Source: Candidatus Latescibacterota bacterium
Lineage (GTDB): Bacteria; Latescibacterota; UBA2968; SICM01
Length of the DNA stretch: 64,000 nucleotides
Reading direction: 5' to 3'
NCBI GenBank assembly: GCA_965217865.1
Contig: CBDCJO010000002.1
Location: 899,178-963,177, forward strand
Within the stretch, counting starts at the first letter, position 1. Every line of letters starts with the position of its first letter. The position numbers and the translations under genes are program-made. The notes beneath the pieces are model-generated. The model searched no databases. It was not told the origin of the DNA and saw nothing but the letters and a program-made list of their open reading frames with translations. This document shows positions 5,185 through 46,245 of the stretch, piece after piece.

Positions 5185-7016
5185 CTTTTTTCTTAAGGCG
5201 ACTTGAATCATTAATTTGCCATGAAAAATGGCACTGGGCATTTCCGATTGCACTTTGTGTCTTCTGGGCGATTTTCTGTTTGCCTACCGTGTTCTATAAC
5301 CTGGATGACACACGCATGATTGCTTATTTCAGCCACGATGACATATATCTGCTCGACACCATCTGGTATTTTTATAGCGGCGAATATAATCCTGAAACCA
5401 TTCAGGCCGGAAGTATAGAAGGTATGCGGGACTATGGTCTATTGTTTCGCTATATCGTCGATCTATCACGTATTTTCATCGAACCCTTTACAGAAATTAC
5501 GCCCGGCCTTCTGTGGGGAATCGTTCGATCACTATACCTCACCTGTGGTTTACTTGCCATCCTGGCATTATGGCGAATGGCCATACGGCACTTCGGCAAG
5601 GGCTGGGTGCCAGTCATCAGTGTGTTGGGCCTTGCTCTTTGTCCGTCGTTTGTCTGGCATTTGGACTTTTGCAAACCCGAACCGATCACGCTTCTTCTGA
5701 CGATTGTTGCATTCGACCACATATTGCGCATCGTCGAGCATGGCTCAGTAAGAAGTATCATAATCGCTTCAGCCTGTGCCGTTGGCGCAATTGTGGTCAA
5801 ACTTGTTGGTATTTTTATTTTGCCAATAATCATGTTGGCAATTTTTTTTCATTGGTGGCTTTCAAAGGATCGTTACAACCCAACGGTGTGGGTGGGTTTT
5901 TTCATGATTGTTGGGGGTATCATATGGGGGATCAGGATAAATTCTCTAGGCCGAATTATTGAATCTTCGCAGCGAGGTATTATCTTTTCGCAGATATTTT
6001 CCGCAATTGTATTGGTTCTTGGTTCGAGTGCAGCTTTTTTCGTTGTTTTTGGATTCCGTTGGCTCCTTGATCCTAAAGATTTTATATCAAAATTCATCGA
6101 GATTTCGAGTTACTCCCTATTTTCAAAAGCGAATCCCATCGGGGATCCGATCGGGTATGGGAAGGCCCTATTTCTCAATATTGGCGAATTCGTCTACACC
6201 ATCAGTGGGCTCAGGCTGCTTCTGTTTGGATGGTACAACAACCCTAATGTGGCTGAACCCAAAATTGCAGGTGACATCTTCACCCCTTTCGGCCTGGTGT
6301 TAATTCTCTGGTTTGTCGTCATAGAATTTAGAGGATTTGGGGGGAAGTGGAACATCGGAGATATCAAGTTTTTTAAACGATCGCATTTAGCCCTATTTTT
6401 TGTGGGTTTTGCATCCTATATGGTTTTAACATCATTCCGCAGCACACGTCACATGCACCATTTGATGTATTTGGTTCCCCCCGGTTTTTTGCTCATCGGC
6501 CAAATACCCCAGTTGATCAAAAAGAGGGGCAATTATCAAAAAGATATATTCATTCTCGTTGTCCTTCTTGTCGCGACCTTTTCCCTGAATGGGCAAACCG
6601 CCATTCGATGGCGGCTTAATAAGCTTGAACAGGGAAGGGGGTCCGATGATATTGTGTGGCAGGTCCAAAAATGGTGGCGAGACAATGTGTCTGTAGATAC
6701 GCCAATCGTCGCTGATCTTCCTTGGAAATCTTATCTGCCTCCCGAATACCAAAATGTTTCCTTCTTTAACTCCCGAGCACATAATGGGAAGGATTATTCG
6801 CGAGCACATGCATCGTTACTTGAGAAGATTGATATGAGAAAACCGGAAATGGTTTACTACAATGCCGGTTCACGGGGAATTCAACCCCCCATGAATAATC
6901 TTCCTGGATATAAAATTCAACAGATCGCCAGCTTTCAGGGAAATTATTATACAAGATATAGAAACAACGGCGATAGATTCATTGTTTATAAAATAAAACC
7001 GATTTCTGATATTTGA
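5181..7016 (+). CDS. GT-C-like polytopic membrane glycosyltransferase (ArnT/PMT-like) with a C-terminal soluble domain
   Basis: 611 aa with many hydrophobic helices. An acidic motif follows the first helix (YNLDDTRMIAYFSHDD). The gene overlaps the upstream gene by 4 nt and precedes an ArnC/Dpm1-like GT2 gene. Confidence 0.5.
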   Translation: MTFFLRRLESLICHEKWHWAFPIALCVFWAIFCLPTVFYNLDDTRMIAYFSHDDIYLLDTIWYFYSGEYNPETIQAGSIEGMRDYGLLFRYIVDLSRIFIEPFTEITPGLLWGIVRSLYLTCGLLAILALWRMAIRHFGKGWVPVISVLGLALCPSFVWHLDFCKPEPITLLLTIVAFDHILRIVEHGSVRSIIIASACAVGAIVVKLVGIFILPIIMLAIFFHWWLSKDRYNPTVWVGFFMIVGGIIWGIRINSLGRIIESSQRGIIFSQIFSAIVLVLGSSAAFFVVFGFRWLLDPKDFISKFIEISSYSLFSKANPIGDPIGYGKALFLNIGEFVYTISGLRLLLFGWYNNPNVAEPKIAGDIFTPFGLVLILWFVVIEFRGFGGKWNIGDIKFFKRSHLALFFVGFASYMVLTSFRSTRHMHHLMYLVPPGFLLIGQIPQLIKKRGNYQKDIFILVVLLVATFSLNGQTAIRWRLNKLEQGRGSDDIVWQVQKWWRDNVSVDTPIVADLPWKSYLPPEYQNVSFFNSRAHNGKDYSRAHASLLEKIDMRKPEMVYYNAGSRGIQPPMNNLPGYKIQQIASFQGNYYTRYRNNGDRFIVYKIKPISDI

Positions 7017-7046
7017 CGAATATCAATAGTCGATATATGGACCTGA

Positions 7047-7832
7047 ATGGAGATGAAAATGAATGAGGACCAACTATCTTTAACCTGTTTCTTTCCTTGT
7101 TATAACGATGCCTATACCATCGCGAGCCTCATAGGGGCCGCGGATGTGGTTGCTCGAGAATTCACTCCCGACTATGAGATCATTGTTGTTGATGATGGAA
7201 GCACAGACAGCAGCCGGGAACTTCTGATTGACCTCCAGGAAAGGTACGTCAATCTTAAATTAATTTTCCACAAAAAAAACGTTGGATATGGGGGTGCCTT
7301 ACAAACGGGCTTTCGTGCTGCGAAAAAAGATCTGGTGTTTTATACGGATGGAGATGGCCAGTACGATGTATTTGAACTTCGAAAATTCCTGAAAGTCATT
7401 CAAGATGGTGTTGATGTCATAAACGGTTATAAGATCGATCGTGCAGATCCCTTACATCGAATCATTATTGGAAAGATATATCTCTATCTTATGAGGTTGC
7501 TTTTTAATTTCAAAATTCGTGACGTCGATTGCGATTTTCGACTGATGCGGCGAAAAGTTTTTGACAAAATATCATTAGAACACACAAGTGGCGTTATCTG
7601 TATTGAATTGGTTAAAAAGCTTGAATTGAAGAAGTATCGGTTTGTGGATTTTCCAGTCCATCATTACCATCGCATGCATGGAAAATCACAGTTTTTCAAC
7701 TTTAGAAGGCTTTTCCGGACTGGCATAAATATTCTCCGGCTCTGGACGACGGTAATTCTAAAGCCCAACTTCCGTCGAATGTTCAATCTAAAGGTTGAAC
7801 ATGCTGCGATAGAAGGATTCCATGGCAATTGA
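7047..7832 (+). CDS. GT2 glycosyltransferase, polyprenyl-phosphate sugar synthase-like (ArnC/Dpm1-like)
   Basis: FFPCYNDAYTIASLI...YEIIVVDDGSTDSS and YTDGDGQYD (DXD motif). The start could also be the ATG at 7053 or 7059. Confidence 0.8.
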   Translation: MEMKMNEDQLSLTCFFPCYNDAYTIASLIGAADVVAREFTPDYEIIVVDDGSTDSSRELLIDLQERYVNLKLIFHKKNVGYGGALQTGFRAAKKDLVFYTDGDGQYDVFELRKFLKVIQDGVDVINGYKIDRADPLHRIIIGKIYLYLMRLLFNFKIRDVDCDFRLMRRKVFDKISLEHTSGVICIELVKKLELKKYRFVDFPVHHYHRMHGKSQFFNFRRLFRTGINILRLWTTVILKPNFRRMFNLKVEHAAIEGFHGN

Positions 7833-8825: not shown

Positions 8826-9926
8826 ATGGTCATACCATTTGGCGATCTCAAGCGTCATTATTTTTCTATAAGAAAACAGGTAGAAAGAGCAGTCCGATCG
8901 GTCTTAGAATCGGGATGGTTTATTCTGGGTGAGAGATGCAAGGCTTTTGAAGATGCCTTCTCCACATATTGCGGTTGCAAATTTGGTGTTGGAGTTGGGT
9001 CGGGAACCGAAGCCCTTCACTTGGGGCTTGTGGCGTGTGGTGTTAGGCCGGGGGATGAGGTTATTACGGTGGCCAACACTTGTGTTCCTACCATATCAGC
9101 GATTTCTTCCGCGGGTGCCCGACCGGTTTTTGTAGATGTTCACCCTCAGAGTTACAACATGGATCCAACACAAATTAAACCTAAGATTACTTCCAAGACA
9201 CGGGCCATCTTGCCAGTACATCTCTATGGACAAGCCGCCGATTTAGACCCCATTCTTTCTATAGCCCGAGAAAGAAACCTGAAAATCGTCGAAGACTGTG
9301 CACAGGCACATGGCACTGAATACAAAGGTCAAAAAGTCGGATCGTTTGGAGATGTGGGATGTTTTAGCTTTTATCCCAGTAAGAACCTGGGTGCGTTTGG
9401 AGACGGTGGAATGGTCGTCACGAGTGCCCCCGAAATCGCAGAAAACCTTAAAATGCTCAGAAATTACGGACAGAGCCGTCGATACCATCACGACATCAAA
9501 GGTTATAATAGCCGTCTGGATGAGATTCAGGCTTCGATTCTCCATACGAAGTTATCATACTTGGATGGTTGGAACTCCCGGCGCAACGAGATAGCAGGCT
9601 TTTATCGAGAGCATGTTAATCATCCCGATATTATTCATCCCTGTGAGATGGGTTATGGAAGGCATAATTTCCACCTTTATGTGGTCCGGGTTCCTGAGAG
9701 GGACGGTTTAAAGATACGCTTAAAAGAAAAGGGGATTGGTACAGAGATTCATTTTCCGATACCCATTCATCACCAGAAGGCATACTCTGACCTGAATATT
9801 CCAGGGGATTCATTACCCGTGACTGAAAGATTTTGTGGCGAAATCCTCAGCTTACCGAATTATCCTGAGCTTAATGAAGAAGAGATAGGATATATCGCTC
9901 AAACGATCCAGGAAGAGGTAGGATAG
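8826..9926 (+). CDS. DegT/DnrJ/EryC1/StrS family sugar aminotransferase
   Basis: GSGTEALHL, VEDCAQAHG, and SFYPSKNLGAFGDGGMV containing the PLP lysine. Confidence 0.85.
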   Translation: MVIPFGDLKRHYFSIRKQVERAVRSVLESGWFILGERCKAFEDAFSTYCGCKFGVGVGSGTEALHLGLVACGVRPGDEVITVANTCVPTISAISSAGARPVFVDVHPQSYNMDPTQIKPKITSKTRAILPVHLYGQAADLDPILSIARERNLKIVEDCAQAHGTEYKGQKVGSFGDVGCFSFYPSKNLGAFGDGGMVVTSAPEIAENLKMLRNYGQSRRYHHDIKGYNSRLDEIQASILHTKLSYLDGWNSRRNEIAGFYREHVNHPDIIHPCEMGYGRHNFHLYVVRVPERDGLKIRLKEKGIGTEIHFPIPIHHQKAYSDLNIPGDSLPVTERFCGEILSLPNYPELNEEEIGYIAQTIQEEVG

Positions 9927-10684: not shown

Positions 10685-11893
10685 GTGCCAGGCGATGTTA
10701 AACAGGCCGTTATTCTCGCGGGAGGAAAGGGAACCCGCCTTGGCGGTTTGACACGCTATCGTCCAAAACCAATGATAGAAGTGGCAGGTAAGCCTTTTTT
10801 ATGCCATTTGCTCACCCTTCTCCGACAACGAGGAATCAAGGAAGTGTTGCTGCTGACAGGATTCCTCGGGGAGTCCATTCTTGATTATATTGGAAATGGG
10901 GAGAGGTGGGGCTTAAATGTGACATATTCACACACCCCGGTGGAAGATAAAACTGGACGTCGACTTGCGTCCGTTGTGGATCGGTTTGATGGAGAGTTTC
11001 TATTGATGTACGCAGATGTCTACTGGCCGCTTCCGCTTGAGAGGATGGCCAAAAGCTTTGATGAAAATCCTCAGGCTTTGGCCCTGGTGGCCGCCTACAC
11101 CAACCGAGAGAGGATTACCCGGAACAACCTGAGGGTGGACGAAGCCGATAACGTTCAGCTCTATGATAAAACCAGAAGAGGAGCTGGCCTGACCCACGTC
11201 GATTCGGGTTACCTGCTCTGCAGGCGTGAAATCGTGGATTATTTCCCGCCTGGGAATTTTTCTCTTGAAGAGGCCGTATATCCTAGATTGGTTCAGGATG
11301 GCCGGATGGCGGCATTTCCCACAGAACAGCGTCATTTCAGCATCGATACTCCTGAAAAGATCGAGAGCGCGGAGATATTCTTTGATTCGGGAAGGACGGT
11401 GTTCATCGATCGTGACGGAACGATCAACCGGTCAGCCGCCCGTTGGGATTATATCCGATCCTGGGAGGCATTCGAGTTTCTGGAAGGCGCGGTGGAGGGC
11501 ATCCGCACCTTGAAGAAGAAGGGATTCCGTGTCATCGTGGTGACCAATCAGGCGGGAATTGCCAGGGGCGAGATGAGCTTAGAACAGGTCGATGAAATTC
11601 ATGAAAAAATGAAAGAGGCTCTAAATCGCGCGGGAGCGCCGGTGGATGCCGTTTATACCTGTCCCCACGGCTGGGACGATGGTTGTTTTTGTCGCAAACC
11701 GAGTCCAGGCTTGCTCTACCGGGCGGCCAACGAACTGGCGTTTGACCTTAGCCATGCGGTCCTGATCGGGGACCAGCCAACCGATTTGGAGGCGGCTGAG
11801 CGTGCGGGTATCCCTGGGATCCAAGTGACTGAGGAGTATTCACTTCTTGATGTTTGTAAATCACAAATTAGCCCGTATGCGAATGACAGATAA
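10685..11893 (+). CDS. bifunctional sugar-1-phosphate nucleotidyltransferase (HddC-like) / D,D-heptose 1,7-bisphosphate phosphatase (GmhB-like) fusion
   Basis: N-terminus has AVILAGGKGTRLGGLTRYRPKPMIEVAGKPFL. C-terminus has the HAD motif VFIDRDGTINR, VVTNQAGIARG and the GmhB-type Cys cluster CPHGWDDGCFCRKPSPG. Confidence 0.7.
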   Translation: MPGDVKQAVILAGGKGTRLGGLTRYRPKPMIEVAGKPFLCHLLTLLRQRGIKEVLLLTGFLGESILDYIGNGERWGLNVTYSHTPVEDKTGRRLASVVDRFDGEFLLMYADVYWPLPLERMAKSFDENPQALALVAAYTNRERITRNNLRVDEADNVQLYDKTRRGAGLTHVDSGYLLCRREIVDYFPPGNFSLEEAVYPRLVQDGRMAAFPTEQRHFSIDTPEKIESAEIFFDSGRTVFIDRDGTINRSAARWDYIRSWEAFEFLEGAVEGIRTLKKKGFRVIVVTNQAGIARGEMSLEQVDEIHEKMKEALNRAGAPVDAVYTCPHGWDDGCFCRKPSPGLLYRAANELAFDLSHAVLIGDQPTDLEAAERAGIPGIQVTEEYSLLDVCKSQISPYANDR

Positions 11894-14081: not shown

Positions 14082-15185
14082 ATGAGGGTACTGGTTACCG
14101 GGGGGTGTGGGTTCATCGGGTCCTGCCTGACTGATGAACTGGTCAGGCGTGGCCATAAGGTAACAGTGTTCGACCGGGAAGAACCTTCCCTGAATCGAAA
14201 CCAACACGCGGATTATCTGTGCGGAGATATCTGCGGCGACCTGGACGGATTACTGGAGCGGAGATTCGATATCGTTTTCCATTACGCCGCGGAAGTGGGA
14301 TCCGGCCTATCCATGGCCGAACCCCTTAAGTTTGTGCGCATAAACTCGTATGGAACGGCCAACCTGATGGAGGCCATCCGGCGTGAAGGGTCGGTCCGAA
14401 AGGTGATCGTCGCATCCAGTTCTACGGTGATGGGCGAATCGACATGTCGCTGTCCTGAGCACGGAATCGTCTATCCCGGGCTTCGGCCGGCGGATCAGGT
14501 TCAGAGAGGGGAATGGGAGCTGAAATGTCCGGATTGTGAAGGAACCGTGGATCCCGTAGCGATGTCGGAGGATCGTCCACTGCGACCGGCTTCGGTTTAC
14601 GGTATGACCAAGAAGGACCAGGAGGAGATGTGCCTGCTGCTCGGCCGGTCCTGGAAACTGCCGGTCGTGGCTTTTCGATTCTTTGCGGTATATGGACCCC
14701 GCCAATCCCTTCGTAATCCATACACAGGTGTTCTGGCGCTTTTTGCCACCCGCCTATTTTCGGGTCATCCGATCTTTCACTATGAGGACGGGGGTCAGCT
14801 CAAGGACTATATCTTCGTCGATGACATCGTACGTGCCAATATGATTGCGATGGAGACCGATGCCGCTGATGGTATGGTCTTCAATTTGGGGAGTGGGCAG
14901 CCGTACACCATCCGACAGGTCGCGGAAAAGCTGCGGGCCTTGATTAACCCGGAATTGGAAATTGTATGTACCGGGCAATATCGTGCCAGCGACAGTCGCC
15001 ACGGCTGGGCGGATATATCCCTGGCCCAAAAATGCCTGGGATGGGTGCCGGAGGTATGTTTTGCCGATGGTCTGAACGAACTCGTTGAGTGGCTCGGAAC
15101 CCTTCCTGACGAGGTTATTTCCGAAGCTGTTGAGAACTTTCAGGAAGCTGAGCGTTACGCAGAATCGTTGGGGATGGCGCTGTGA
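14082..15185 (+). CDS. extended SDR sugar epimerase/dehydratase with a Cys4 zinc-ribbon-like insertion
   Basis: VLVTGGCGFIGSCL and VYGMTK (YxxxK). An insertion of about 45 aa, CRCPEHG...ELKCPDCEG, lies between the Ser region and YxxxK. Confidence 0.75.
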   Translation: MRVLVTGGCGFIGSCLTDELVRRGHKVTVFDREEPSLNRNQHADYLCGDICGDLDGLLERRFDIVFHYAAEVGSGLSMAEPLKFVRINSYGTANLMEAIRREGSVRKVIVASSSTVMGESTCRCPEHGIVYPGLRPADQVQRGEWELKCPDCEGTVDPVAMSEDRPLRPASVYGMTKKDQEEMCLLLGRSWKLPVVAFRFFAVYGPRQSLRNPYTGVLALFATRLFSGHPIFHYEDGGQLKDYIFVDDIVRANMIAMETDAADGMVFNLGSGQPYTIRQVAEKLRALINPELEIVCTGQYRASDSRHGWADISLAQKCLGWVPEVCFADGLNELVEWLGTLPDEVISEAVENFQEAERYAESLGMAL

Positions 15186-16168
15186 TCATTTCTCAGACAC
15201 CTTTTCGGATCAGTTTCGTGGGCGGGGGAACCGATATCCCCAGTTTTTATAAAAATTGCGGGGGGGGTGCGGTGGTCAGCACCACGATCGACAAGTACAT
15301 CTATGTGACGGTTAAACCTCAAAATCGACTCTACGAGCATCGCTTTCGCATCGGATATTCAGTGACTGAAAACGTGGACTCTGTCGAAGAGATTAATAAT
15401 CCAATTGTCCGAGAGGCCCTCAAGCTCCTGGATATCGAAGATCCAATGGAGATTACGGTCCTGTCCGAGATTCCTGCGCGAACCGGGCTCGGATCTTCCA
15501 GTTCATTCGCCGTCGGCATTCTGAACGCACTCCATGCCTTCAAGGGAAAGGTCGCGACTCCTGAGCAGCTGGCAAGGGAGGCCTGTCAGATCGAGATCGA
15601 CCGCTTAAATCGGCCGATCGGAAAGCAGGATCACTATGCAGCGGCTTACGGAGGCCTTAATCGGATTCAATTTGATGCAGACGAGTTTGTCAGGGTCGAA
15701 CCCATTATTTGCAATCCCGAGAAGCGGGATGCTCTTTTTGCCCATCTGCTCCTTTTTTACACGGGCATTACTCGGGATGCGGACGATGTTCTGAAATCAC
15801 AACAATCCAATGCGAATCATAACCAAAAAAGATTGGGAAAGATGACCCAGCTCGTCGAACCCTTCGTCGCAGAATTACAATTTCCCGATGGAGAACTATC
15901 CCGGCTGGGGAAGTTGCTGCATCAGGGATGGAAATATAAACAATCTCTTGCACAGTCCATTACATCCCCTGAAATCGATGATTACTATGAAACAGCGATG
16001 TCATCGGGATCGACCGGCGGGAAGCTTCTGGGTGCGGGAAGCGGGGGCTTCCTATTGCTCTTCGCGGAACCCTCTCAACAGGAATCTGTTCGAAGGGCAC
16101 TCGGTGAACTTATGGAGCTGCCGATCGAATACGAACCTTATGGCAGCCGAATTGTTTTCGTGAGATAA
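15182..16168 (+). CDS. hddA: GHMP-family sugar kinase, D-glycero-alpha-D-manno-heptose 7-phosphate kinase-like
   Basis: TPFRISFVGGGTDIPSFY at the N-terminus, GHMP motif PARTGLGSSSSFAVG, and GAGSGGFLLLF at the C-terminus. Confidence 0.65.
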   Translation: MIISQTPFRISFVGGGTDIPSFYKNCGGGAVVSTTIDKYIYVTVKPQNRLYEHRFRIGYSVTENVDSVEEINNPIVREALKLLDIEDPMEITVLSEIPARTGLGSSSSFAVGILNALHAFKGKVATPEQLAREACQIEIDRLNRPIGKQDHYAAAYGGLNRIQFDADEFVRVEPIICNPEKRDALFAHLLLFYTGITRDADDVLKSQQSNANHNQKRLGKMTQLVEPFVAELQFPDGELSRLGKLLHQGWKYKQSLAQSITSPEIDDYYETAMSSGSTGGKLLGAGSGGFLLLFAEPSQQESVRRALGELMELPIEYEPYGSRIVFVR

Positions 16169-19615: not shown

Positions 19616-20806
19616 TTGATCGGGTGTTCCCTTTCTGTCTATGATCATTCTCGGTGTTATCTTTTCGCCCTCGGCCGCAACGCGATGTTCGCAGCCTGTC
19701 AGGCGGTTGGCCTTAAGGAAGGCGATGAGGTCCTTTCACCCGCCTTCGATGGCGATGGCACCCTGCAGCCCTTTACCGCCTTCGGCTGTCGGATCGTGTT
19801 TTATCGATCTGATCCGAATACTTTTGCGGCTGATGTGAATGATATCCGGCAGAAGATCTCAGAGCGAACACGGCTCATTCACGTGATCCACCACTTCGGC
19901 ATGCCCCAACCCTGGAGAGAGCTGGAGTCTCTTCGACGGGAAAGGGGAATTCCGACCCTGGAGGACAACGCCTATTCGCTTTTTTCATCCATCGAGGGAC
20001 AGCCGTTCGGTACTTTTGGGGATCTGGCTATATTTTCGCTTCGCAAAGAGCTCCCTCTTGTAGATGGTGGGATGTTACGTATCAACAACCTGAAGTTTTC
20101 GTGGTCGCGACCGGCACGCCGAGTTCGGTGGTTTTACCCCACTGAAAGGGGTACTCTGCTTTCGCAGGTCCAGGATGAGTTGAGGCGCCAGTTTTTAGTG
20201 CCAATCCCTGCAGTAAGACTTGCTCGTCTGATAGGATTTCTTCCAGATCAGAAACCTCAAGCCCTGCCTCCCCTTTTTTCCGATCCCGAAGCCCCGTATC
20301 CGGTTTGGCCTGATCGCGATAAGATAGGGGAGGAGTTTTCCTGTGACTATATTCGTCCGATTTCCCTACTGGGGCGCAAGCAGCTTTGCCGATGGAGTCG
20401 GGGTGATTTTGAACGCCTCTCGGTGCGGAGAATAATGGCCTATCGGACCCTTGTACCCCTCCTACAGAACGTCCCCGGGCTTACTGTGCTGAACCCCGAA
20501 CTTCCGGATGGCATCGTGCCCTTTTGCCTCAATTTGCGATTAGAAAAACGCAGGGATGAAGTTCTCATAGCACTCCAAAAGTCATATAACGTGATGGCAT
20601 GGCCGACTTTACCGGGTACTGTGCTGGAGCAGGTGGAAAATTTTCCAGAGGTTCGACAGTTGGGAAGGAAGCTGCTGCAGTTCATATTTCCCAAGGGATT
20701 GAACTGGCCGCTCGCTTACGACGGGATCCTAAAACAGTTCGCCGTGGATTTGAAACGAATTTGGGAGCGTGAATCTCCCTGCGAAGGTAAGACCGGAAAA
20801 AACTAA
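19616..20806 (+). CDS. divergent DegT-like PLP-fold enzyme with a short N-terminus
   Basis: GRNAMFAACQAVGLKEGDEVLSP, LEDNAYSL, and GTFGDLAIFSLRKELPLVDGGML with a Lys retained. Confidence 0.45.
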   Translation: MIGCSLSVYDHSRCYLFALGRNAMFAACQAVGLKEGDEVLSPAFDGDGTLQPFTAFGCRIVFYRSDPNTFAADVNDIRQKISERTRLIHVIHHFGMPQPWRELESLRRERGIPTLEDNAYSLFSSIEGQPFGTFGDLAIFSLRKELPLVDGGMLRINNLKFSWSRPARRVRWFYPTERGTLLSQVQDELRRQFLVPIPAVRLARLIGFLPDQKPQALPPLFSDPEAPYPVWPDRDKIGEEFSCDYIRPISLLGRKQLCRWSRGDFERLSVRRIMAYRTLVPLLQNVPGLTVLNPELPDGIVPFCLNLRLEKRRDEVLIALQKSYNVMAWPTLPGTVLEQVENFPEVRQLGRKLLQFIFPKGLNWPLAYDGILKQFAVDLKRIWERESPCEGKTGKN

Positions 20807-30434: not shown

Positions 30435-32090
30435 ATGGTAATTGATCGTGCGGTTGGTATGTTTGCTTCATTCGGAAAATTTGTCGAAAGGTTTGTATTT
30501 CGTGGCGAGGCCAGCCCCACGTGGGACATTCGACGATCGGGAATCGTCTGTGCATTGCTCTTTGTTTTAGCCCTGAGGATCCGCCTGCCTTATATTTCAA
30601 TCGGCTTGCCGTATATGCATTTCTGGGACGAGTCGGAATTGGCTCGAGAGTCCGCATACATGTATGAAAACTGGACCGCAAAACCACAACGACCGACATA
30701 TGCATCCACGCACTACTACGCCCTTACCGGATGGTACGTCATCTGTCAAATATTCCAGTGGCCCCTTAAATTCCCCTACAATATTTATCATGCGAACGAT
30801 ATTGCAGATGTGAGTCAATTCCAGGTGAACTCCTCCTTTATTTACTATTCTGGACGGTTGTTGCAATCGTGTGTTGTCTCTCTGGGAATCGTACTTGTAT
30901 ATCTTTTGGCCATCAGATGTTCCTGTCTTGCGGTCGCGCTGTGGGCGTTTTTCTTCCTTTGCCTGAATTACGCAGAGTTTATTCAATCGCTTTATATGAA
31001 CGTACACACCTTTGCGACGGTGTTCTGCGTGGCTGGACTGTATTGCTTACAATTATCCGCAGATTCCAAAAGGCCCGGGGAAAAATATTATTTGATTCTT
31101 CTGAGCGGGGTTTTCTTCGGAATTGGTGGAGGAACCAATTTTTTTCCGCTTGTTGCAAGCGGGCTTGCCGTTTTGTTTATTTGCCGTTCGCGCGATCTGA
31201 ATCTCGGCATCCTTCTCCCATTCATGATCGTTGTTTTGACCTGTTTCGTTTTAAGCAGCCCCTATCTCTTTCTGGATCGCCCGTTATCGAGCGGAGACGG
31301 GCTCTCTCCGTTGGGATGGGTTGTTGCTAACCTGGAGTCGTATGCGAAAATGGGTGGGGCCCTTGTCCTTGCGACGAAAATACAGTCCTGTTTAAGTTAT
31401 TTGGTTTCGTTCGTTTTCGGTTGGATCATGTCTGTTTTCATGATATTCGGAATGGCTCGGTTGCTTTCCACGGAAAAGCTTCGACAGACCGTGCTTCTGG
31501 AGATCGTTCTCCTATCGTTTATGGCCGTCTGGTCCCTCTCAAGGCAGTCCCAACTCTACCACCGCCATCTTGCACTTGCACTCCCTAGGGTGCGCAATCC
31601 TTGTCGCCCTCGGGATCGACTGGGCCATCGGGTGGGGAATTCGCGTATACCGACGGTTTTCTCCGGTTATGAGGAAACAAGAACGCGAGCCATTCGATGG
31701 ATACTGGAAATGGCTGAAACCAATCCTCCCAAACCGGTTCTTGTTGATTCTAGATTATGGCGAGAGCCAAGCGCAGTACAGGCCGATCACCCTAATGTAA
31801 AACTTTTTGATGATCGTCCAACAATCGTCGATTACAGCAAAGAAAAAGGATTGGGTTATGTCGTAGGTTTTCCAAAGGCATCCTTCGGAGCTAAACTGAA
31901 GCCAACGCGAGAACAAATCATAAAGGTATTCAAACGAAGCCCGGAACAGGAGCGGCTGCGGGAGGCGATGCAAAGGATCGTTGGGGCTTCCCAAAATATC
32001 GGAAAGCACAGTGGGATGTTTTATCGTCCCGCGCGTTATCCGACGATCGATCCGGAGGTTGTGGTGGTTTTATTGCATGGGGTGGGGTAG
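30435..32090 (+). CDS. GT-C-like polytopic membrane glycosyltransferase (ArnT/PMT-like) with a C-terminal soluble domain
   Basis: 551 aa. An acidic motif follows the first helix (YMHFWDESELARE), then about 10 hydrophobic segments and a hydrophilic tail. GGAGAG Shine-Dalgarno upstream. Confidence 0.5.
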   Translation: MVIDRAVGMFASFGKFVERFVFRGEASPTWDIRRSGIVCALLFVLALRIRLPYISIGLPYMHFWDESELARESAYMYENWTAKPQRPTYASTHYYALTGWYVICQIFQWPLKFPYNIYHANDIADVSQFQVNSSFIYYSGRLLQSCVVSLGIVLVYLLAIRCSCLAVALWAFFFLCLNYAEFIQSLYMNVHTFATVFCVAGLYCLQLSADSKRPGEKYYLILLSGVFFGIGGGTNFFPLVASGLAVLFICRSRDLNLGILLPFMIVVLTCFVLSSPYLFLDRPLSSGDGLSPLGWVVANLESYAKMGGALVLATKIQSCLSYLVSFVFGWIMSVFMIFGMARLLSTEKLRQTVLLEIVLLSFMAVWSLSRQSQLYHRHLALALPRVRNPCRPRDRLGHRVGNSRIPTVFSGYEETRTRAIRWILEMAETNPPKPVLVDSRLWREPSAVQADHPNVKLFDDRPTIVDYSKEKGLGYVVGFPKASFGAKLKPTREQIIKVFKRSPEQERLREAMQRIVGASQNIGKHSGMFYRPARYPTIDPEVVVVLLHGVG

Positions 32091-32122: not shown

Positions 32123-33334
32123 GTGAACATGGCAAACAGCCTTGAACCATCATTTCGAATCGGAGTCGGTGGATTTGAGATAACCGACCGTGCCAGAGAC
32201 TATGTGAACAAGGTTCTTGACAGCAACCGTCTTTCTCACGGAAAGTTTTCCCAGACCTTTGAAAACGCCTTTGCCCGGTTGCACGATGTCAGGTATGCGG
32301 TTTTCTGCAACAGCGGTACTTCCGCCCTGCATATCGCCTTAGCTTGTTTGAAGGAGACTGAAAAGTGGGAGGAGGGGGACGAAGTTGTCCTGCCTGCGGT
32401 GACGTTCGTGGCCACTTCAAACATGGTGCTGATCAACAATCTCACACCCGTTTTCGTGGATGTCGACCCGAGGACCTACAACATCGATCCAGAAAAGATT
32501 GAGGAGAAGATCACCGATCGTACGCGTGCTGTCATGCCCGTGCACCTCTTTGGTCAACCCTGCGAAATGGATCCGATTATGGAGATCACAAGACGCCGTG
32601 GTCTGCGCGTGATCGAAGATTCCGCCGAAACCATGTTCGCACGGTACAAAGGAAAACCCGTCGGGTCGTGGGGGGACATGGCATGTTTTTCAACCTATAT
32701 AGCACACCTCCTTATCACCGGGGTGGGGGGAATGGCGGTGACGAATAATCCCGATTATGCCATCATCATGAGAAGTTTGATGAATCATGGACGTGATTCG
32801 GTCTATCTGAACATCGACGAACGGGAAGAATCTTCGGATGCCCGTCTAAAACTAGCAGAAGGTCGTTTTCGTTTTGTACGTTTTGGCCACAGCTTTCGCG
32901 CGACGGAATTAGAGGCGGCCCTTGGCCTGGCTCAGCTTGAAGAAATGGACGGGCTTCTTGAACGCCGTAAACGCAACTCCCAATCATTACTTAGAGGATT
33001 GGTAAAATTCAGTGAGTTCCTTCAACTTCCTGCGTGGCCTGACCATGCCGATCACGTCTTCATGATGTTTCCTATCGTCATACGAGATTCCGCAATCAAG
33101 AAGAGAGATCTGATATCCTTTCTTGAAAATCATGGGGTGGAAACAAGAGATATGCTGCCTTTGCTAAACCAGCCTATATACCAGGAACGGTATGGCGATC
33201 TCGAGAGTCAGTACCCCGTGGCGAAATGGATTAACCGTTCAGGTTTTTATATAGGATGCCACCCTTATCTTGGCGAAGAACAGATTGACTATGTGATCAC
33301 TCAATTTGAAAAGTTTTTTTCGAGGAGGGGATAA
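32123..33334 (+). CDS. DegT-family PMP-dependent NDP-4-keto-6-deoxy-sugar 3-dehydratase (ColD/E1-like), His in place of the Schiff-base Lys
   Basis: [27 protein letters not shown] aligns without gaps up to the catalytic position with [28 protein letters not shown] of the 8826 aminotransferase, placing H where that enzyme has K. The gene lies directly upstream of gmd. The start may be the ATG at 32129. Confidence 0.6.
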
Positions 33335-34347
33335 TGGAAGGGAAAAAGGCGCTGATCACCGGGGTTACCGGTCAAGACGGGTCGTATCTTTGTGAATTTC
33401 TCCTGGAAAAGGGCTATGAGGTCCACGGAATCATTCGTCGGTCGAGTTCGTTTAATACCAGCCGAGTGATGCATATTTTCCAGGATCCACACGAAAAAGA
33501 GACACGGTTTTCCCTTCACTACGGCGACTTGAATGATGCCTCTTCGATCAGTCGGTTGATTTCCAAAATCAAGCCAGATGAGATATATAATCTGGGTGCG
33601 CAAAGTCACGTGCGGGTCAGTTTTGACATTCCTGAATACACGACCGAAATCGATGCCCTGGGGACGTTGCGAATCCTTGATGCGATCAGGGAAGAAGGGG
33701 TTGTGACGAAGTTTTACCAGGCTTCGAGCAGCGAATTGTTCGGAAAAACGGTTGAAGTTCCTCAGAAAGAGACAACCCCTTTTGCCCCCCAGAGTCCCTA
33801 TGCTTGTGCCAAGCTTTATGCCTTATGGATTACGAGAAATTACCGTGAAGCTTACAACATATATGCATGCAATGGGATCCTTTTTAATCACGAGTCTCCC
33901 AGACGAGGCGAGACGTTCGTCACGCGTAAAATCACGAGAGGAATCGCCAGGATTCTCGCAAAGAAAGATGAGAAAATCTTTCTGGGAAACCTCGATTCAA
34001 AACGAGACTGGGGGTATGCAAAGGACTATGTTCGGGCTATGTGGCTTATGATGCAACAGGATGAACCGGATGATTACGTTATTGCTACGGGAGAAACCCA
34101 TTCTGTGCGTGAATATCTTGATGAGGCGTTTTCACTGGTTGGTTTGCGCTGGGAGGATTATGTCGAAATCGATCCTCGCTACTTCCGTCCGCTGGAGGTG
34201 GATATCTTGATGGGTGATGCATCCAAGGCTGAGAAAAAATTCGGATGGAAGCCGACCGTATCTTTCGAGCAACTGGTAAAAATAATGCTGGAGGCGGACC
34301 TCAAAGCGGAGGGGATGGATCCGGGGGATGTCATTCTGGAAAAATAA
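33334..34347 (+). CDS. gmd: GDP-mannose 4,6-dehydratase
   Basis: [69 protein letters not shown]. An AGGAGG Shine-Dalgarno precedes it, and the ATG overlaps the upstream TAA. Confidence 0.9.
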
Positions 34348-35302
34348 ACGCGTGGTGGTCACAGGCGGCTCAGGATTCATCGGAAGCCATCTGGTGGAAC
34401 GGCTTCTAGAGGCGGGAGCTCTCGTTACAGTACCGGTGCGGGGCGAAGAAAGCCATCTGGGGTTTTTGAAGGCCGTCCGCGAGGATGTTAAGATCTGTAT
34501 CGGCGACCTGATGGAAATCGACGCATGTTTAATGGCGATCGAAGGCCATGAGATCGTGATGAACCTGGCCGCCCGTGTCGGCGGTGTTGATTTCAATATC
34601 CGACATCCGGGTTCGATATTTCGGAATAATTTGCAATTGTTCATGAATGTTCTCGAGGCCTCCCGGAAGTGCGGGGTGGAGAGATTCCTCGTCACAAGTT
34701 CAGCCTGTGTGTATCCTCGATTTTGCACCATTCCAACCCCGGAAGAAGAAGGAGTGCTGGATCGCCCGGAACCCACGAACGAAGGTTACGGCTGGGCCAA
34801 ACGGATGGAGGAGTTTCTGGGCGATGCCTACGCCCGAGAATTCGGGATGAAGATCGCTGTTGCCAGGCCATACAATGCGTATGGTCCCCGTGACAATTTT
34901 AACCCGGACTCTTCCCACGTCATCCCCGCTTTGATTAAACGGATCTTCGACGGAGAAAATCCCTTAGTGGTCTGGAGTGACGGTACGCCATCGAGATCTT
35001 TTCTATTTGTGAGTGACTTTGTCCGGGGGTTGATGGAGGTTGCCGAAAAATATACGGAAAGCGATCCGTTGAACCTTGGAGCGGATGAGGAGATCAATAT
35101 TCGAAACCTGTCTGAACTATTGGTCGAATTAAGTGGAAAGGATATCCGAATAAAATTTGATGCCTCGAAGCCGGGAGGTCAACCCCGGAGAAAATGTGAT
35201 ATCCGAAAGGCCTACGAGAAAATCGGATTTCGCGCGCAGGTTCCCCTGCGAGAGGGTTTAAGACGAACGATCGATTGGTACAAATCCGAGTTTTCCGGGT
35301 GA
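34328..35302 (+). CDS. GDP-L-fucose synthase / GDP-L-colitose synthase-like epimerase-reductase (extended SDR)
   Basis: [23 protein letters not shown]...[29 protein letters not shown]. The gene overlaps the 3' end of gmd by 20 nt. Confidence 0.6.
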
Positions 35303-35307
35303 ATAGA

Positions 35308-36006
35308 ATGAGAGTATCGCTTGTCATCTTGACCTTGAATGAAATTGACGGGCTACGTGCGCTCTACGATCGTATCCCGATTCAGGGCGTGGATGAGGTT
35401 TTTGCGGTTGACGGGGGATCGACTGACGGCACTCGAGAATTTTATCGTGACATGGGATTGAAAGTCATCGATCAGAGGTCCCGGGGGCGGGGGGAGGCCT
35501 TCAGAATCGCGTTTCAACATGCTTCAGGAGATGCGCTTATTTTTTATAGTCCAGATGGAAACGAAGATCCAACCGATATCCCGAAGTTTGCTCCGCTATT
35601 AAAAGAGGGTTATGATCTCGTGATTGCCTCCCGTATGATGCGAGGGGCCCGCAACGAGGAGGATGAAGATTTGTTTCGGTGGCGCAAATGGGCAAACCAG
35701 ATGTTTACGCGCAAGGCCAATTTTCTGTGGAACCGGGGCGGGACTTTCGTTACGGATACGATCAACGGTTTTCGAGCGATAAACAGAACGGCCTTTGAAA
35801 AAATAAAATTGGATAGCGTGGGGTACACGATAGAGTATCAGATGAGTATTCGAGCCATGAAGCTGGGTTTACGGATTGCAGAATTTCCGACCTTTGAAGG
35901 ATCGCGAATCGGGGGCGAAAGCTATGCGAAATCCTTTCCATTAGGGATTCAGATGCTTAAGACATTGTGGTCTGAAATGTGGACCGGGAATTCGTTTGAA
36001 TCCTGA
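35308..36006 (+). CDS. GT2 glycosyltransferase, polyprenyl-phosphate sugar synthase-like
   Basis: MRVSLVILTLNEIDGL...VFAVDGGSTDGT and YSPDGNEDP. I chose the ATG at 35308, just after the upstream stop; the track ORF starts at 35275. Confidence 0.7.
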   Translation: MRVSLVILTLNEIDGLRALYDRIPIQGVDEVFAVDGGSTDGTREFYRDMGLKVIDQRSRGRGEAFRIAFQHASGDALIFYSPDGNEDPTDIPKFAPLLKEGYDLVIASRMMRGARNEEDEDLFRWRKWANQMFTRKANFLWNRGGTFVTDTINGFRAINRTAFEKIKLDSVGYTIEYQMSIRAMKLGLRIAEFPTFEGSRIGGESYAKSFPLGIQMLKTLWSEMWTGNSFES

Positions 36007-37270: not shown

Positions 37271-37294
37271 CACTTGGAAGGGATCCTAGTCCTT

Positions 37295-39199
37295 ATGTGT
37301 GGGATTGCAGGTGCCATAAATTGGGGAGATCGAAATACATTACTCCGAATGGCCCAGGTCCTGGCACATCGGGGCCCTGATGATGAAGGGTTATGGGAAG
37401 AGCGATCTGTCGATGGCACCTGGGTGGGGTTGGGACATCGCCGACTCAGCGTGTTGGACTTAAGTTCGGCGGGCCACCAACCGATGTCAAATGAGGATGA
37501 ACGGTTCTGGATCGTTTATAACGGGGAAATCTACAACTATCTTGACTTGAAGAAAGAATTGCTCCGGAACGGGCATCGGTTCAAATCCACCTCGGACACG
37601 GAAGTCATCCTGCATCTCTATGAGATGCACAAAGAGGGTTGTCTGGAGCATATCCGGGGGATGTTCGCAATCGGTATTTGGGATCGGAAGAAGTGCGAAC
37701 TCTTCCTGGCGAGGGATCGGTTGGGGATCAAGCCCCTGTACTACACGGAGCAGAAAGGCCGTTTGCTTTTTGCCTCCGAGCTGAAAGCGATCCTCACACA
37801 TCCGGAGATCAGTCGGGAAGTTGATTATGAGGCATTAAACGATTATTTGACATACCTTTATATTCCTCCCCCCAGGACAATCTTCAAGGGCATTCAGAAG
37901 CTTCTCCCGGGACATTATCTTGTCTGGCGAGAAGGGAAGATCGTTCAAGAGAAACGGTACTGGGAAATCCCGAAAGGGACGATCGAGGGAGACGAAGGGG
38001 AACTGGTTGAACAGCTTCGGTCGCTTTTAGAGGAATCCGTCCGACTTCGGATGACCAGTGATGTTCCCCTGGGCGCTTTCCTGAGCGGCGGGATCGATTC
38101 AAGCAGTATCGTCGGGTTGATGGCCCAAGAGGCAGCCCAACCGGTCAAGACATTCAGCATTGGTTTCAGCGAGAGGGCTAGGTTGTATAATGAGTTGGGT
38201 TATGCACGTCGTGTCGCGGAGTATTTTGGCACGGATCACCACGAAATCATTGTTGAGCCCGACGCCGCAAGTCTTCTCCCAAAGGTTGTAGAGGGATTCG
38301 ACGAGCCGTTCGGTAATCCCACTGCATTTTTAGTCCATCTCCTGTCGGGGTTTACCAGGGAACACGTAACGGTTGCATTGGCAGGAGATGGAGGAGACGA
38401 AGTATTCGGCGGTTACCCCCGGTATCAAGGAGCGGCTCTTTCGGGAATTTACAGGTTGGTTCCCAGTTGGGTTCGCAGGCTTACTTTCGAAACGGCTGCC
38501 AGGTATATTCCCGAATCATCCCGCGGAAGGCACGGATTAAGACGGTTCAGGGAATTCGCAGAAGGAAATCGACTGTCTCGGGAGGCTATGTACTCCAGCT
38601 GGGTGACATACTATTCAGAGGATATGAAGTCCTCTCTGTATTCACCAGAGGCTCAGAATAATATCGGGGGGAAGGATTCGTACGGTTTTCTGGAAGGACT
38701 ATTCGATGAAGCAAAAACACGTGACCGCCGTGAATTCTTCGATCAGATCACGGTTGTCGATTTGCTGTCATTCTTGCCCTGTAATCTTCTTGCATACACC
38801 GATCGGATGAGCATGGCCCATTCCCTGGAGGTCAGAGTCCCTTTTGTGGATCATAAGCTGGTGGAGTTTGTCACGAAGCTTCCCCATACCCTCCGGCTCA
38901 GGGGATTCCAAGGTAAGTACATTCTAAAGAGAGCTATCGGAGATCTCCTACCAAAGTCGATCTTAAAACGAAGAAAGTTGGGTTTCAATCCCCCGATGGG
39001 CGTATGGCTGAAAGAGGATCTACAAGATCTCGTCAGGGATTGCCTCTCGGAGGATGTGGTTAGAAGAAGGGGTTACTTCAGGCCGGAGGCGATAGATTCT
39101 ATGTTGGATTTATATTCTTCCGGAAAGCGGGACCTTTCGCTGCACATATGGGCACTGCTGGTACTCGAGATTTGGCATCGCACCTATATCGACAAATAA
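37295..39199 (+). CDS. asnB: asparagine synthase (glutamine-hydrolysing) family amidotransferase
   Basis: MCGIAGAI places the Ntn nucleophile Cys at residue 2, which is why I chose the start at 37295. Also SGGIDSS (PP-loop) and AGDGGDEVFGGY. Confidence 0.85.
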   Translation: MCGIAGAINWGDRNTLLRMAQVLAHRGPDDEGLWEERSVDGTWVGLGHRRLSVLDLSSAGHQPMSNEDERFWIVYNGEIYNYLDLKKELLRNGHRFKSTSDTEVILHLYEMHKEGCLEHIRGMFAIGIWDRKKCELFLARDRLGIKPLYYTEQKGRLLFASELKAILTHPEISREVDYEALNDYLTYLYIPPPRTIFKGIQKLLPGHYLVWREGKIVQEKRYWEIPKGTIEGDEGELVEQLRSLLEESVRLRMTSDVPLGAFLSGGIDSSSIVGLMAQEAAQPVKTFSIGFSERARLYNELGYARRVAEYFGTDHHEIIVEPDAASLLPKVVEGFDEPFGNPTAFLVHLLSGFTREHVTVALAGDGGDEVFGGYPRYQGAALSGIYRLVPSWVRRLTFETAARYIPESSRGRHGLRRFREFAEGNRLSREAMYSSWVTYYSEDMKSSLYSPEAQNNIGGKDSYGFLEGLFDEAKTRDRREFFDQITVVDLLSFLPCNLLAYTDRMSMAHSLEVRVPFVDHKLVEFVTKLPHTLRLRGFQGKYILKRAIGDLLPKSILKRRKLGFNPPMGVWLKEDLQDLVRDCLSEDVVRRRGYFRPEAIDSMLDLYSSGKRDLSLHIWALLVLEIWHRTYIDK

Positions 39200-42988: not shown

Positions 42989-43873
42989 ATGGCATCTCAA
43001 AGTCTTTATCTCTTTAAGGCCATGCGGCCGCACCAGTGGACCAAAAATCTGCTTTTGTTCGCAGGGGTCCTGTTTTCCAAGCACCTGTTTGAATTCGAAA
43101 AACTTTTAGTAGCCTCCGGAGCTTTTGTCGTCTTCTGTCTGGTCGCGGGGGGTATCTATATCTTCAACGACTTGCTTGATCTCGAACAGGACCGGAGGCA
43201 TCCACTCAAACGAGGACGGCCTTTGGCTTCGGGTTTGCTTAAGCCATCGGTCGCCCTTGTTGGAAGTGGCCTCGCTCTTGCAATCGGGCTTTTGGGAGCG
43301 TTTCGCCTGAGCTTTTCCTTCGGTGGAATGGTCGGTATCTATTTAGTCCAAAATCTTCTATATACCAAGTTTCTCAAGAACATCGTGATCATCGATGTGA
43401 TGATGATCGGGTTCGGTTTTGTTCTGAGGGCTGTGTCGGGAGCGGTGGTGGTGGATGTCGAGGTTTCTTCGTGGCTGATATTGTGCACGTTTCTCCTGTC
43501 ATTGTTCCTAGGTTTTAGCAAGCGACGACAGGAACTGGTGAAACTTGGTGAAGGAGGCGAGGAACATCGCCCCATTCTTGCAGAATACAGCCCGCACTTC
43601 CTGGATGTCATGATCAGCATCGTTACCGGAGCAACGATAATGTCTTATGCGCTCTACACGATGTCGGAACAGACAATCCAGAAATTTCAAACGTCCCGCC
43701 TCATCCTGACGATCCCTTTCATCATCTACGGTATCTTTCGATACCTCTACCTGATGTATAAACAGGAGAAGGGGGATAACCCCACGAAGATTCTGCTCAC
43801 AGATTTGACGATACAGTTAGACATCTTTCTCTGGATCGTAGCGGTGGTCGGGATTATTTATTTGCGAATATAG
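42989..43873 (+). CDS. UbiA-family prenyl-phosphate phosphoribosyltransferase (decaprenyl-phosphate 5-phosphoribosyltransferase-like)
   Basis: MRPHQWTKNLLLFAGVLFS, NDLLDLEQDRRHPLKRGRPLASG, and a second Asp-poor helix bundle. This pattern is typical of the Rv3806c-like branch of the UbiA family. Confidence 0.65.
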   Translation: MASQSLYLFKAMRPHQWTKNLLLFAGVLFSKHLFEFEKLLVASGAFVVFCLVAGGIYIFNDLLDLEQDRRHPLKRGRPLASGLLKPSVALVGSGLALAIGLLGAFRLSFSFGGMVGIYLVQNLLYTKFLKNIVIIDVMMIGFGFVLRAVSGAVVVDVEVSSWLILCTFLLSLFLGFSKRRQELVKLGEGGEEHRPILAEYSPHFLDVMISIVTGATIMSYALYTMSEQTIQKFQTSRLILTIPFIIYGIFRYLYLMYKQEKGDNPTKILLTDLTIQLDIFLWIVAVVGIIYLRI

Positions 43874-45201: not shown

Positions 45202-46245
45202 ATGATGCACCCATTTCTGTATACATTTCTAATTGCGCTGACCATCTCCCTTTTGGTCACTCCACTCATGCGGGTCTTGGCCTTAAAGGTTAAGATGGTC
45301 GACCTTCCAAACGCCCGAAAGATCCACAGCCGGCCGGTTCCATATCTTGGAGGCGTGGCCATCAGCTTGGCCTTCGTATTCAGCATCCTGATCGGACAAC
45401 GGTTGTTCCAGGGGTTTCAAACCTTTCAATCCCTGTATTCCATCTTATTGGCGTGCGGGGTCATCGTTCTCCTGGGGTTATACGATGATCACAGGGGATC
45501 ATCCGCATGGATCAAAGTTATCTTCCAGTCAACGGCTGCCATCATCGTTATCAACGCCGGGATTCAGATCGATATGATCAAGATCCCTTTTTTTCAATAC
45601 ATCCATCTGGGACTCTGGAGTTGGCCGGTCACTTGCCTCTGGATCGTTGGCCTATGCAATGCCGTCAACCTCATCGATGGGTTGGACGGACTGGCAGCTG
45701 GAGTTGCCATGATCGCGTCCTTTTCCCTTTTCGCCACCTCAATTCGGTGGGGCGAGATTGAGGTTGCTTTGCTCTGCATCGCTATGGCGGGAAGTTTGCT
45801 AGGGTTTTTGCGTTACAATTTTCATCCTGCACGTATCTTCATGGGGGACGCCGGTGCTCTCCTGCTTGGATTCCTCCTGGGGGTTCTGAGCATCATGGAA
45901 GGATCTAAAAGCACATCCGCCATCGCCGTTCTCATCCCCATTACTGCCCTTGGGATACCCATCCTGGACACCGGAGTAGCCATACTCCGCCGCCTCCGAA
46001 AGGGGGATCCCCTTTTCGTGGCAGACCAGGAGCACCTCCATCATCATCTGCTCCATATCGGGCTATCCCATCGTCAAGCCGTCATTCTAATATACCTGGC
46101 GTCCATTTACCTCGGCATCCTTTCCTTTGCGATGACATTCCTCCTTCCCGACCTGCGTGCGGTTATCTTCGTCGTCATGGTCGTGAGCGGGACGCTGGTT
46201 GTAAGGCGGTGGGTAAAATTGTATCAAGCTTCGTTGAACAGGTGA
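45202..46245 (+). CDS. WecA/WbpL/MraY-family polyprenyl-phosphate HexNAc-1-phosphate transferase (initiating enzyme)
   Basis: VDLPNARKIHSRPVPYLGGVAI, YDDHRG, NAVNLIDGLDGLAAG, NFHPARIFMGDAG. Confidence 0.85.
   Translation: MMHPFLYTFLIALTISLLVTPLMRVLALKVKMVDLPNARKIHSRPVPYLGGVAISLAFVFSILIGQRLFQGFQTFQSLYSILLACGVIVLLGLYDDHRGSSAWIKVIFQSTAAIIVINAGIQIDMIKIPFFQYIHLGLWSWPVTCLWIVGLCNAVNLIDGLDGLAAGVAMIASFSLFATSIRWGEIEVALLCIAMAGSLLGFLRYNFHPARIFMGDAGALLLGFLLGVLSIMEGSKSTSAIAVLIPITALGIPILDTGVAILRRLRKGDPLFVADQEHLHHHLLHIGLSHRQAVILIYLASIYLGILSFAMTFLLPDLRAVIFVVMVVSGTLVVRRWVKLYQASLNR

Follow-up and report, generated by a model that had tools for sequence, protein, structure and literature searches.

The window studied here is a stretch of 64,000 nucleotides (nt) from a Candidatus Latescibacterota genome (contig CBDCJO010000002.1), in which three overlapping genes at 32123-35302 quite probably encode a pathway from GDP-mannose to a GDP-3,6-dideoxy-L-hexose, namely colitose or its C4 isomer. 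The first gene encodes a DegT-fold protein with a histidine in place of the Schiff-base lysine, the second a GDP-mannose 4,6-dehydratase (Gmd), and the third an Fcl-type short-chain dehydrogenase/reductase (SDR), which we call SDR3. Phylogenetic analysis places the first protein in a large and uncharacterised clade that is sister to ColD and E1 and is referred to below as clade B. An earlier reading of the same DNA, made from its letters only (the sequence-only reading), had taken the trio for the full enzyme set of GDP-L-colitose synthesis. Our analysis supports an enzyme set for a 3,6-dideoxyhexose derived from GDP-mannose, on the grounds of the histidine, the Gmd assignment, the catalytic residues of the SDR and a gene linkage that extends across phyla, but the outer two proteins are not ColD and ColC themselves, to which each is 29% identical. 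The three genes are listed here, with protein lengths in amino acids (aa).

32123..33334, + strand: gene 1, His-type DegT-fold candidate sugar 3-dehydratase (clade B), 403 aa
33334..34347, + strand: gene 2, GDP-mannose 4,6-dehydratase Gmd, 337 aa
34328..35302, + strand: gene 3, SDR3, Fcl-type extended SDR, 324 aa

The open reading frames (ORFs) are chained by overlapping stop and start codons, as had been described before. Genes 1 and 2 meet in TAATG at 33332-33336, where stop and start share one base, and a GGAGGGG stretch lies just 5' of this junction. Genes 2 and 3 overlap by 20 nt (ATG at 34328, TAA at 34345-34347), and the likeliest start of the next gene, which encodes a small family 2 glycosyltransferase (GT2), is the ATG at 35308, five bases past the gene 3 stop. 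The four genes are therefore packed as one translational unit. We note that the database version of gene 1 starts at ATG 32129 and has 401 aa.

A histidine at the Schiff-base lysine position

The gene 1 protein matches Pfam family PF01041 (DegT_DnrJ_EryC1) with 336 bits over residues 21-395. Its catalytic histidine, His195 in the numbering of the 403-aa protein (codon 32705-32707), lies in a segment that is coded at 32684-32731. In the alignment, His195 falls on Lys186 of the Caulobacter GDP-perosamine synthase (in FSFFGNKIITTGEGG), on His188 of ColD and His220 of E1, and on the lysine of the aminotransferase encoded at 8826 of the window. The sequence-only reading had noticed the histidine opposite the pyridoxal phosphate lysine of the 8826 protein and had proposed the comparison with ColD and E1; the alignment agrees with it on all three proteins. 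His195 is invariant in 120 of 120 homologues with 55-72% identity, and the frame FSTY..H...TG.GG around it is invariant in the same sequences. The exchange of lysine for histidine is therefore not a chance substitution. The family has a single conserved cysteine, Cys186.

Among solved structures, the gene 1 sequence matches GDP-perosamine synthase (223 bits) ahead of E1 (183 bits) and ColD (155 bits), and its best NCBIfam match is RfbH, with 257 bits under a cut-off of 423. The AlphaFold2 (AF2) model has a predicted local distance difference test (pLDDT) score of 91 and template modelling (TM) scores of 0.82-0.95 to DegT-family structures. It superposes best on GDP-perosamine synthase (3bn1, TM 0.95, root-mean-square deviation (rmsd) 1.9 Å), and its rmsd to the ColD structures is 3.2-3.9 Å. 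The protein therefore has fold type I and the DegT/DnrJ/EryC1 architecture, as do the PMP-dependent 3-dehydratases of the ColD/E1/SpnQ group.

Gene 1 is placed in a sister clade of ColD and E1

A tree was built from 136 full-length sequences among the best 150 representatives found in a search of 1.84 billion cluster representatives, with the addition of the query, the Lys-type 8826 protein of the window and three PDB references recovered from tool alignments. The histidine is present in 120 of the 140 rows of this tree, and all sequences that bear it form one clade, which is sister to the perosamine-synthase-like lysine enzymes. The histidine clade splits into clade A, which contains ColD and E1 and has the motif SFYxxHHxTxxEGG, and clade B, which contains the query, has the motif CFSTYxAHxxxTGVGG and is much larger than clade A in this sample. 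FastTree gives support values of 99 and 100 to these splits, with 99 for the histidine clade. A reduced IQ-TREE analysis (LG+C20+F+G4) supports clade B with 98 and clade A with 91, and the split between lysine and histidine enzymes has a value of 99 in the SH-like approximate likelihood ratio test (SH-aLRT). The group names were given after the first tree had been seen, though the groups coincide with the motifs. A 20-30-residue insertion after an HG(R/W) segment is common to both histidine clades and absent from the lysine enzymes. Because GDP-perosamine synthase is the best sequence and fold match of gene 1, an origin of the clade-B histidine independent of ColD and E1 was also considered; the trees and the common insertion favour a single origin.

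The dehydratase had been called ColD-like in the sequence-only reading. This holds for the histidine at the lysine position, but gene 1, with 29% identity and a place in a separate sister clade, is no orthologue of ColD. Every characterised GDP-sugar 3-dehydratase falls in the ColD branch, including those that act on heptoses in Campylobacter jejuni, which are 62-67% identical to ColD (PMC10440746), and a 2022 review of such enzymes covers only E1, ColD and SpnQ-type enzymes (PMC8987622). The window contains a further ORF at 19616-20806 (396 aa) with a DegT match over residues 20-158 only (80 bits), which is either a truncated or a strongly divergent third gene of the DegT family.

Gmd and the supply of GDP-mannose

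Gene 2 passes the cut-off of the NCBIfam Gmd equivalog TIGR01472 (552.7 bits, cut-off 415) and is 59% identical to E. coli Gmd, so that its description as a canonical GDP-mannose 4,6-dehydratase stands. It scores 459-469 bits against the solved GDP-mannose dehydratases in the PDB and 151 bits against 7us5, the C. jejuni GDP-heptose 4,6-dehydratase. The 6.43-Mb genome has no other full-length gmd. A 193-residue stretch outside the window (C2:3514237-3514794) matches the N-terminal half of Gmd with 46% identity and is either a gmd fragment or a short paralogue.

The search of the genome for manB and manC, which had been proposed together with the colitose assignment, was successful for manC. This gene lies outside the window and encodes a monofunctional protein of 361 aa, 36% identical to E. 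coli ManC, with 284 bits over the guanylyltransferase part of TIGR01479. A bifunctional ManC was also sought: a search with the phosphomannose isomerase cupin domain PF01050 gave only two small cupin ORFs, and TIGR01479 led to the monofunctional manC. The result for manB is given below with other points that weigh against the pathway.

SDR3 retains the catalytic residues of Fcl

Within the extended SDRs, SDR3 falls in the Fcl/GME part, and its gene directly follows gmd. Its best NCBIfam match is Fcl (NF047922), with 204.7 bits against a cut-off of 500, and it is 31% identical to E. coli Fcl and 29% identical to O111 ColC, which are 38% identical to each other. In an alignment with these two proteins, SDR3 retains Ser107, Cys109, Tyr136, Lys140 and His179 (E. 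coli Fcl numbering), and both epimerisation and reduction by SDR3 are therefore plausible. It differs from ColC and Fcl in an SSAC segment and an N-terminal insertion of ~18 residues. The earlier designation as an Fcl/ColC-like epimerase-reductase thus stands for the Fcl type and the five catalytic residues, but not in the sense of a ColC orthologue. SDR3 is probably a 5-epimerase/4-reductase that acts on GDP-4-keto-3,6-dideoxymannose and a functional analogue of ColC.

Linkage of the genes across phyla

Gene linkage was examined in one genome per GTDB species. Relatives of gene 1 are encoded in 506 stretches, of which the best 80 were analysed; they come from Elusimicrobiota, Patescibacteria, Planctomycetota, Omnitrophota, Acidobacteriota, Gemmatimonadota, Nitrospirota and DPANN archaea. 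The following genes accompany the clade-B gene in these loci.

Gmd orthologue (at least 45% identity) near the clade-B gene: 40 of 80 loci
Gmd adjacent to the clade-B gene on the same strand: 32 of 80 loci
SDR3 orthologue near the clade-B gene: 16 of 80 loci
Another Fcl-like SDR directly adjacent to the clade-B gene: 14 further loci of the 80
Any match to the HddC/GmhB protein of the window (below 40% identity and 150 bits): 2 of 80 loci
Match to the HddA-like kinase of the window: 0 of 80 loci

The linkage was also viewed from the side of SDR3, with eight orthologues (60-67% identical) on long contigs. In each of the eight loci, the SDR3 gene is accompanied by a His-type DegT gene and by a Gmd orthologue with 51-72% identity; the DegT protein is of clade B in three loci and has the ColD-like SHH...EGG motif in the other five. 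Clade-B and ColD-like enzymes are therefore found in one and the same position next to SDR3 and Gmd. This shared position is the strongest argument that the two types do the same job and that SDR3 acts on a 3-deoxy intermediate. Gene fusions tie the members together further: a ColC/Fcl-like SDR is found fused to a clade-B protein, a clade-B protein to the small GT2, and the small GT2 to Gmd. The GT2-Gmd fusions (611-619 aa) of two metagenome loci (L107:4169-6004 and L110:4145-6004) have a clade-B dehydratase gene on one side and an SDR3 orthologue on the other.

A clade-B gene was found in only 2 of 40 relatives searched (one genus of another family), the patchy pattern that is usual for glycan loci. 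We also observed that an AsnB-like amidotransferase of the window (37274-39199) has counterparts with 42-43% identity in 14 of the 80 clade-B loci, mostly in Elusimicrobiota and usually 5' of the dehydratase gene; it may have a functional tie to the same glycan.

Proposed pathway

In the pathway we propose, the monofunctional manC elsewhere in the genome would supply GDP-mannose, and Gmd, whose assignment is shown by orthology, converts GDP-D-mannose to GDP-4-keto-6-deoxy-D-mannose. The clade-B enzyme would then bind the ketosugar as a ketimine of pyridoxamine phosphate (PMP), with His195 as the general base/acid that abstracts the C4' proton. Expulsion of the 3-hydroxyl group and hydrolysis of the resulting ene-amine would yield GDP-4-keto-3,6-dideoxy-D-mannose and ammonia. 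We propose this step because of the exchange of lysine for histidine that is the hallmark of such enzymes, the insertion that gene 1 shares with ColD and E1, its place in the tree and its linkage to the partner genes. In ColD, PMP is regenerated from an amino acid, and the mechanism has been reviewed (PMC8987622); since gene 1 has no iron-sulfur (Fe-S) cysteines, its PMP is probably regenerated in the same way. SDR3 would epimerise the product at C5 and reduce it at C4 with NAD(P)H, a role assigned because its Ser/Cys/Tyr/Lys/His set is conserved and because it shows an obligate linkage to His-type DegT genes. The small GT2 would pass the sugar on, possibly to polyprenyl phosphate, which is the weakest inference of the four steps. 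Reduction by SDR3 from the face that Fcl and ColC use would give colitose (L-xylo); otherwise the product would be the L-ribo isomer, which has its parallel in the C. jejuni heptose pathway, and sequence does not tell the two apart. The sugar is most likely destined for a surface glycan.

Several observations weigh against this pathway. The histidine loop is the least confident part of the gene 1 model, with a pLDDT of 62 for the block 191-200. Gene 1 is only 29% identical to ColD of E. coli O111, and its GVGG stands in place of the xEGG of ColD, E1 and the aminotransferases. Since SDR3 scores under the cut-off of Fcl and is no orthologue of ColC, the stereochemistry at C4 is not predictable. 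BLAST with E. coli ManB did not find a clear phosphomannomutase in the genome, the only match having 23% identity, and gmd is absent within 8 kb in half of the 80 related loci. The literature searched, mostly without subscription papers, so that absence is unproven, yielded no assayed or characterised member of clade B.

Alternative explanations

The trio could act on a heptose instead. HddC/GmhB/HddA-like genes 17-22 kb upstream may provide GDP-D-glycero-D-manno-heptose, from which the three enzymes would make a GDP-3,6-dideoxyheptose, as in C. jejuni HS:5, where this chemistry has been proven (PMC10440746). The window does contain a nucleotidyltransferase-GmhB fusion (10685-11893) and an HddA-like GHMP kinase (15182-16168), and the HddC-like gene is, as the sequence-only reading had stated, the only sugar nucleotidyltransferase in the window. 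A dedicated heptose 4,6-dehydratase was sought among the other SDRs of the window, but those at 14082 and 16171 are GalE-like, that at 7822 is RmlB/LegB-like, and none resembles 7us5, which leaves the heptose genes without a dedicated dehydratase of a known kind. The heptose product is disfavoured by the orthology of gene 2 to GDP-mannose dehydratases (459-469 bits, against 151 bits to the heptose enzyme), by the manC gene in the genome, and by the distance of gene 1 from the C. jejuni heptose 3-dehydratases, which are close relatives of ColD as given above while gene 1 is not. It is further disfavoured by the linkage, since half of the closest loci have Gmd while matches to the heptose genes are scarce or lacking, and by low family scores: the N-terminal HddC domain reaches 64 bits against a cut-off of 300, and the HddA-like kinase 138 against 600. 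We consider the heptose product, which the sequence-only reading had raised, very unlikely. As for the upstream genes themselves, the GmhB-like phosphatase part of 10685-11893 scores 161 bits against a cut-off of 178, and no GmhA (SIS) match was found among the scanned window ORFs of at least 150 aa. Together, 10685-11893 and 15182-16168 resemble an activation module of a heptose-like kind.

A different objection concerns the reaction rather than the substrate. The clade-B enzyme might act on GDP-4-keto-6-deoxymannose in another way, for instance through SpnQ-like transamination after dehydration, which would give a 4-amino-3,4,6-trideoxy sugar, or through another PMP-dependent rearrangement, and the product would not be a 3,6-dideoxyhexose. 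Clade B is indeed a distinct deep branch with its own GVGG motif instead of EGG, the fold of gene 1 is closest to that of an aminotransferase, and SpnQ has aminotransferase activity under some conditions (PMC8987622). However, the lysine needed for normal transaminase turnover is missing in every member, an Fcl-type 4-reductase as partner needs a 4-keto and not a 4-amino product, and clade-B enzymes alternate with ColD-like ones next to the same two orthologues, SDR3 and Gmd, which speaks for an identical product. On this evidence, a reaction other than plain deoxygenation is unlikely. It is scarcely probable that Gmd and SDR3 make GDP-L-fucose while the His-type DegT protein is catalytically dead or an unrelated passenger, even though the best family match of SDR3 is GDP-L-fucose synthase, several sources name its homologues so, and the genome has no other Fcl. 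A His-type DegT gene next to Gmd in every sampled SDR3 locus, the translational coupling of the DegT gene to gmd, an invariant histidine motif that must be under selection, and the fusions of clade-B proteins with Fcl/ColC-like SDRs all speak against a passenger.

A fourth module member and a possible lipid-carrier route

Two further genes adjoin the trio.

35308..36006, + strand: small GT2 of the dolichol-phosphate mannose synthase (DPMS)/AglJ type, with a Pfam GT2 match; fourth module member
30435..32090, + strand: multi-pass membrane protein, family unassigned, 551 aa; module membership uncertain

The small GT2 is a conserved fourth member of the module. Proteins of this type (232-243 aa) are matched in 26 of the 80 clade-B loci, the best ten being 53-67% identical, and their genes usually directly follow SDR3 in related loci. 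The NCBIfam scores are 102 bits for AglJ (cut-off 325) and 66 bits for dolichyl-phosphate hexose transferase (cut-off 375), and the only PDB sequence match is the Pyrococcus furiosus dolichol-phosphate mannose synthase 5mlz (60 bits). These matches make the small GT2 a candidate for the transfer of the sugar to polyprenyl phosphate. PMT_2-type GT-C genes adjoin the module in two related clade-B loci, while three of five ColD-like loci have GT10 or GT11 genes instead. This neighbour pattern suggests that the clade-B module passes its sugar to a lipid carrier. The small GT2 shares with the ArnC/ArnT, GtrB/GtrC and DPMS-type systems its resemblance to dolichol-phosphate mannose synthase and AglJ; unlike them, the GT2 of the window has no membrane anchor, and it scores under the cut-offs. 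A GT-C partner was not confidently identified within the window. We tentatively propose, as an idea that is more speculative than the pathway itself, that the clade-B dehydratase, Gmd, SDR3 and the GT2 are the four parts of a system that is conserved in many uncultivated bacterial and archaeal phyla, which would load a 3,6-dideoxyhexose onto polyprenyl phosphate, from which a GT-C enzyme would add the sugar to an extracytoplasmic glycan. If this were true, it would be an Arn/Gtr-like route of decoration with dideoxy sugars, distinct from the Leloir GT10/GT11 route found beside ColD-like enzymes.

The membrane protein gene at 30435-32090 ends 33 nt 5' of the dehydratase gene. Its product has no Pfam match even at an E value of 0.05 and only two homologues in 5.8 billion proteins, and its AF2 model (pLDDT 35) is unusable. 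Compared with a 604-aa homologue, ~53 residues that comprise two hydrophobic helices are missing, and a divergent Arg/Pro-rich stretch is found there, so to judge from this comparison the gene may be damaged. The protein is no more than a candidate acceptor-side transferase, conceivably of the GT-C type, and it is uncertain whether it belongs to the module.

At 5181-7832 of the window, a 611-aa protein with a weak PMT_2 (GT-C) match (24 bits, cut-off 26) is followed by a 261-aa GT2, and with these two the locus may have a second pair for glycosylation by way of a lipid carrier. The end of the locus encodes a UbiA-family prenyltransferase (42989-43873), a GT4 and a WecA/MraY-type initiating transferase of the GT4 family (45202-46245). 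A UbiA enzyme in a glycan locus recalls carriers of the decaprenyl-phosphate ribosyl type.

Significance

The chemistry proposed here is known; the enzyme lineage is uncharacterised and routinely misnamed. Thousands of clade-B genes are publicly annotated as 'aminotransferase' or 'perosamine synthetase', and true ColD is also named generically by the Prokaryotic Genome Annotation Pipeline (PGAP). If clade B consists of 3-dehydratases, 3,6-dideoxy sugars would be far commoner than the few enterobacterial, Vibrio and Campylobacter cases suggest and would occur, among others, in candidate phyla and DPANN archaea. The activity of one member, once known, would settle how a very large family is to be annotated and could establish a third natural solution to C3 deoxygenation beside ColD and E1. 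For this genome, a rare sugar is predicted in the product of a 44-kb glycan locus.

Comparison with known dehydratases and with perosamine synthase

Among the known enzymes, E1 (AscC/DdhC/RfbH; PDB 3bcx) shares with gene 1 the histidine at the lysine position, the alanine before it, and a GRD segment that opens the common insertion. E1 is a CDP-6-deoxy-L-threo-D-glycero-4-hexulose 3-dehydrase. Gene 1 scores under the cut-off of RfbH and has no cysteine at the positions of the four [2Fe-2S] cysteines of E1. An E3-like or ferredoxin-reductase-like partner was not seen among the locus ORFs scanned. The partner dehydratase also differs, being specific for GDP-mannose in the case of gene 1 and for CDP-glucose in that of E1.

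The GDP-perosamine synthase Per of Caulobacter (PDB 3bn1, 3dr4) is the best match of gene 1 in both sequence and fold, and it uses the presumed gene 1 substrate, GDP-4-keto-6-deoxymannose. Per is, however, an aminotransferase with Lys186, whereas gene 1 has the histidine and the extra insertion that is typical of the dehydratases.

ColD (WbdK; E. coli O55 and O111, Yersinia pseudotuberculosis; PDB 2gms, 3b8x, 3gr9) differs from gene 1 in its clade, with the low identity given above, in the fold of gene 1 being nearer to perosamine synthase, and in the motif around the histidine, which is SHH..T(M/I)EGG in ColD and AH...TGVGG (AHLL..GVGG) in gene 1. The two have in common the DegT fold, the histidine in place of the Schiff-base lysine, the insertion after the HG(R/W) segment and the lack of Fe-S cysteines. 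Like ColD, gene 1 is found together with gmd and an Fcl-type SDR, and from this common gene context, the substrate and the reaction of the two enzymes are probably the same.

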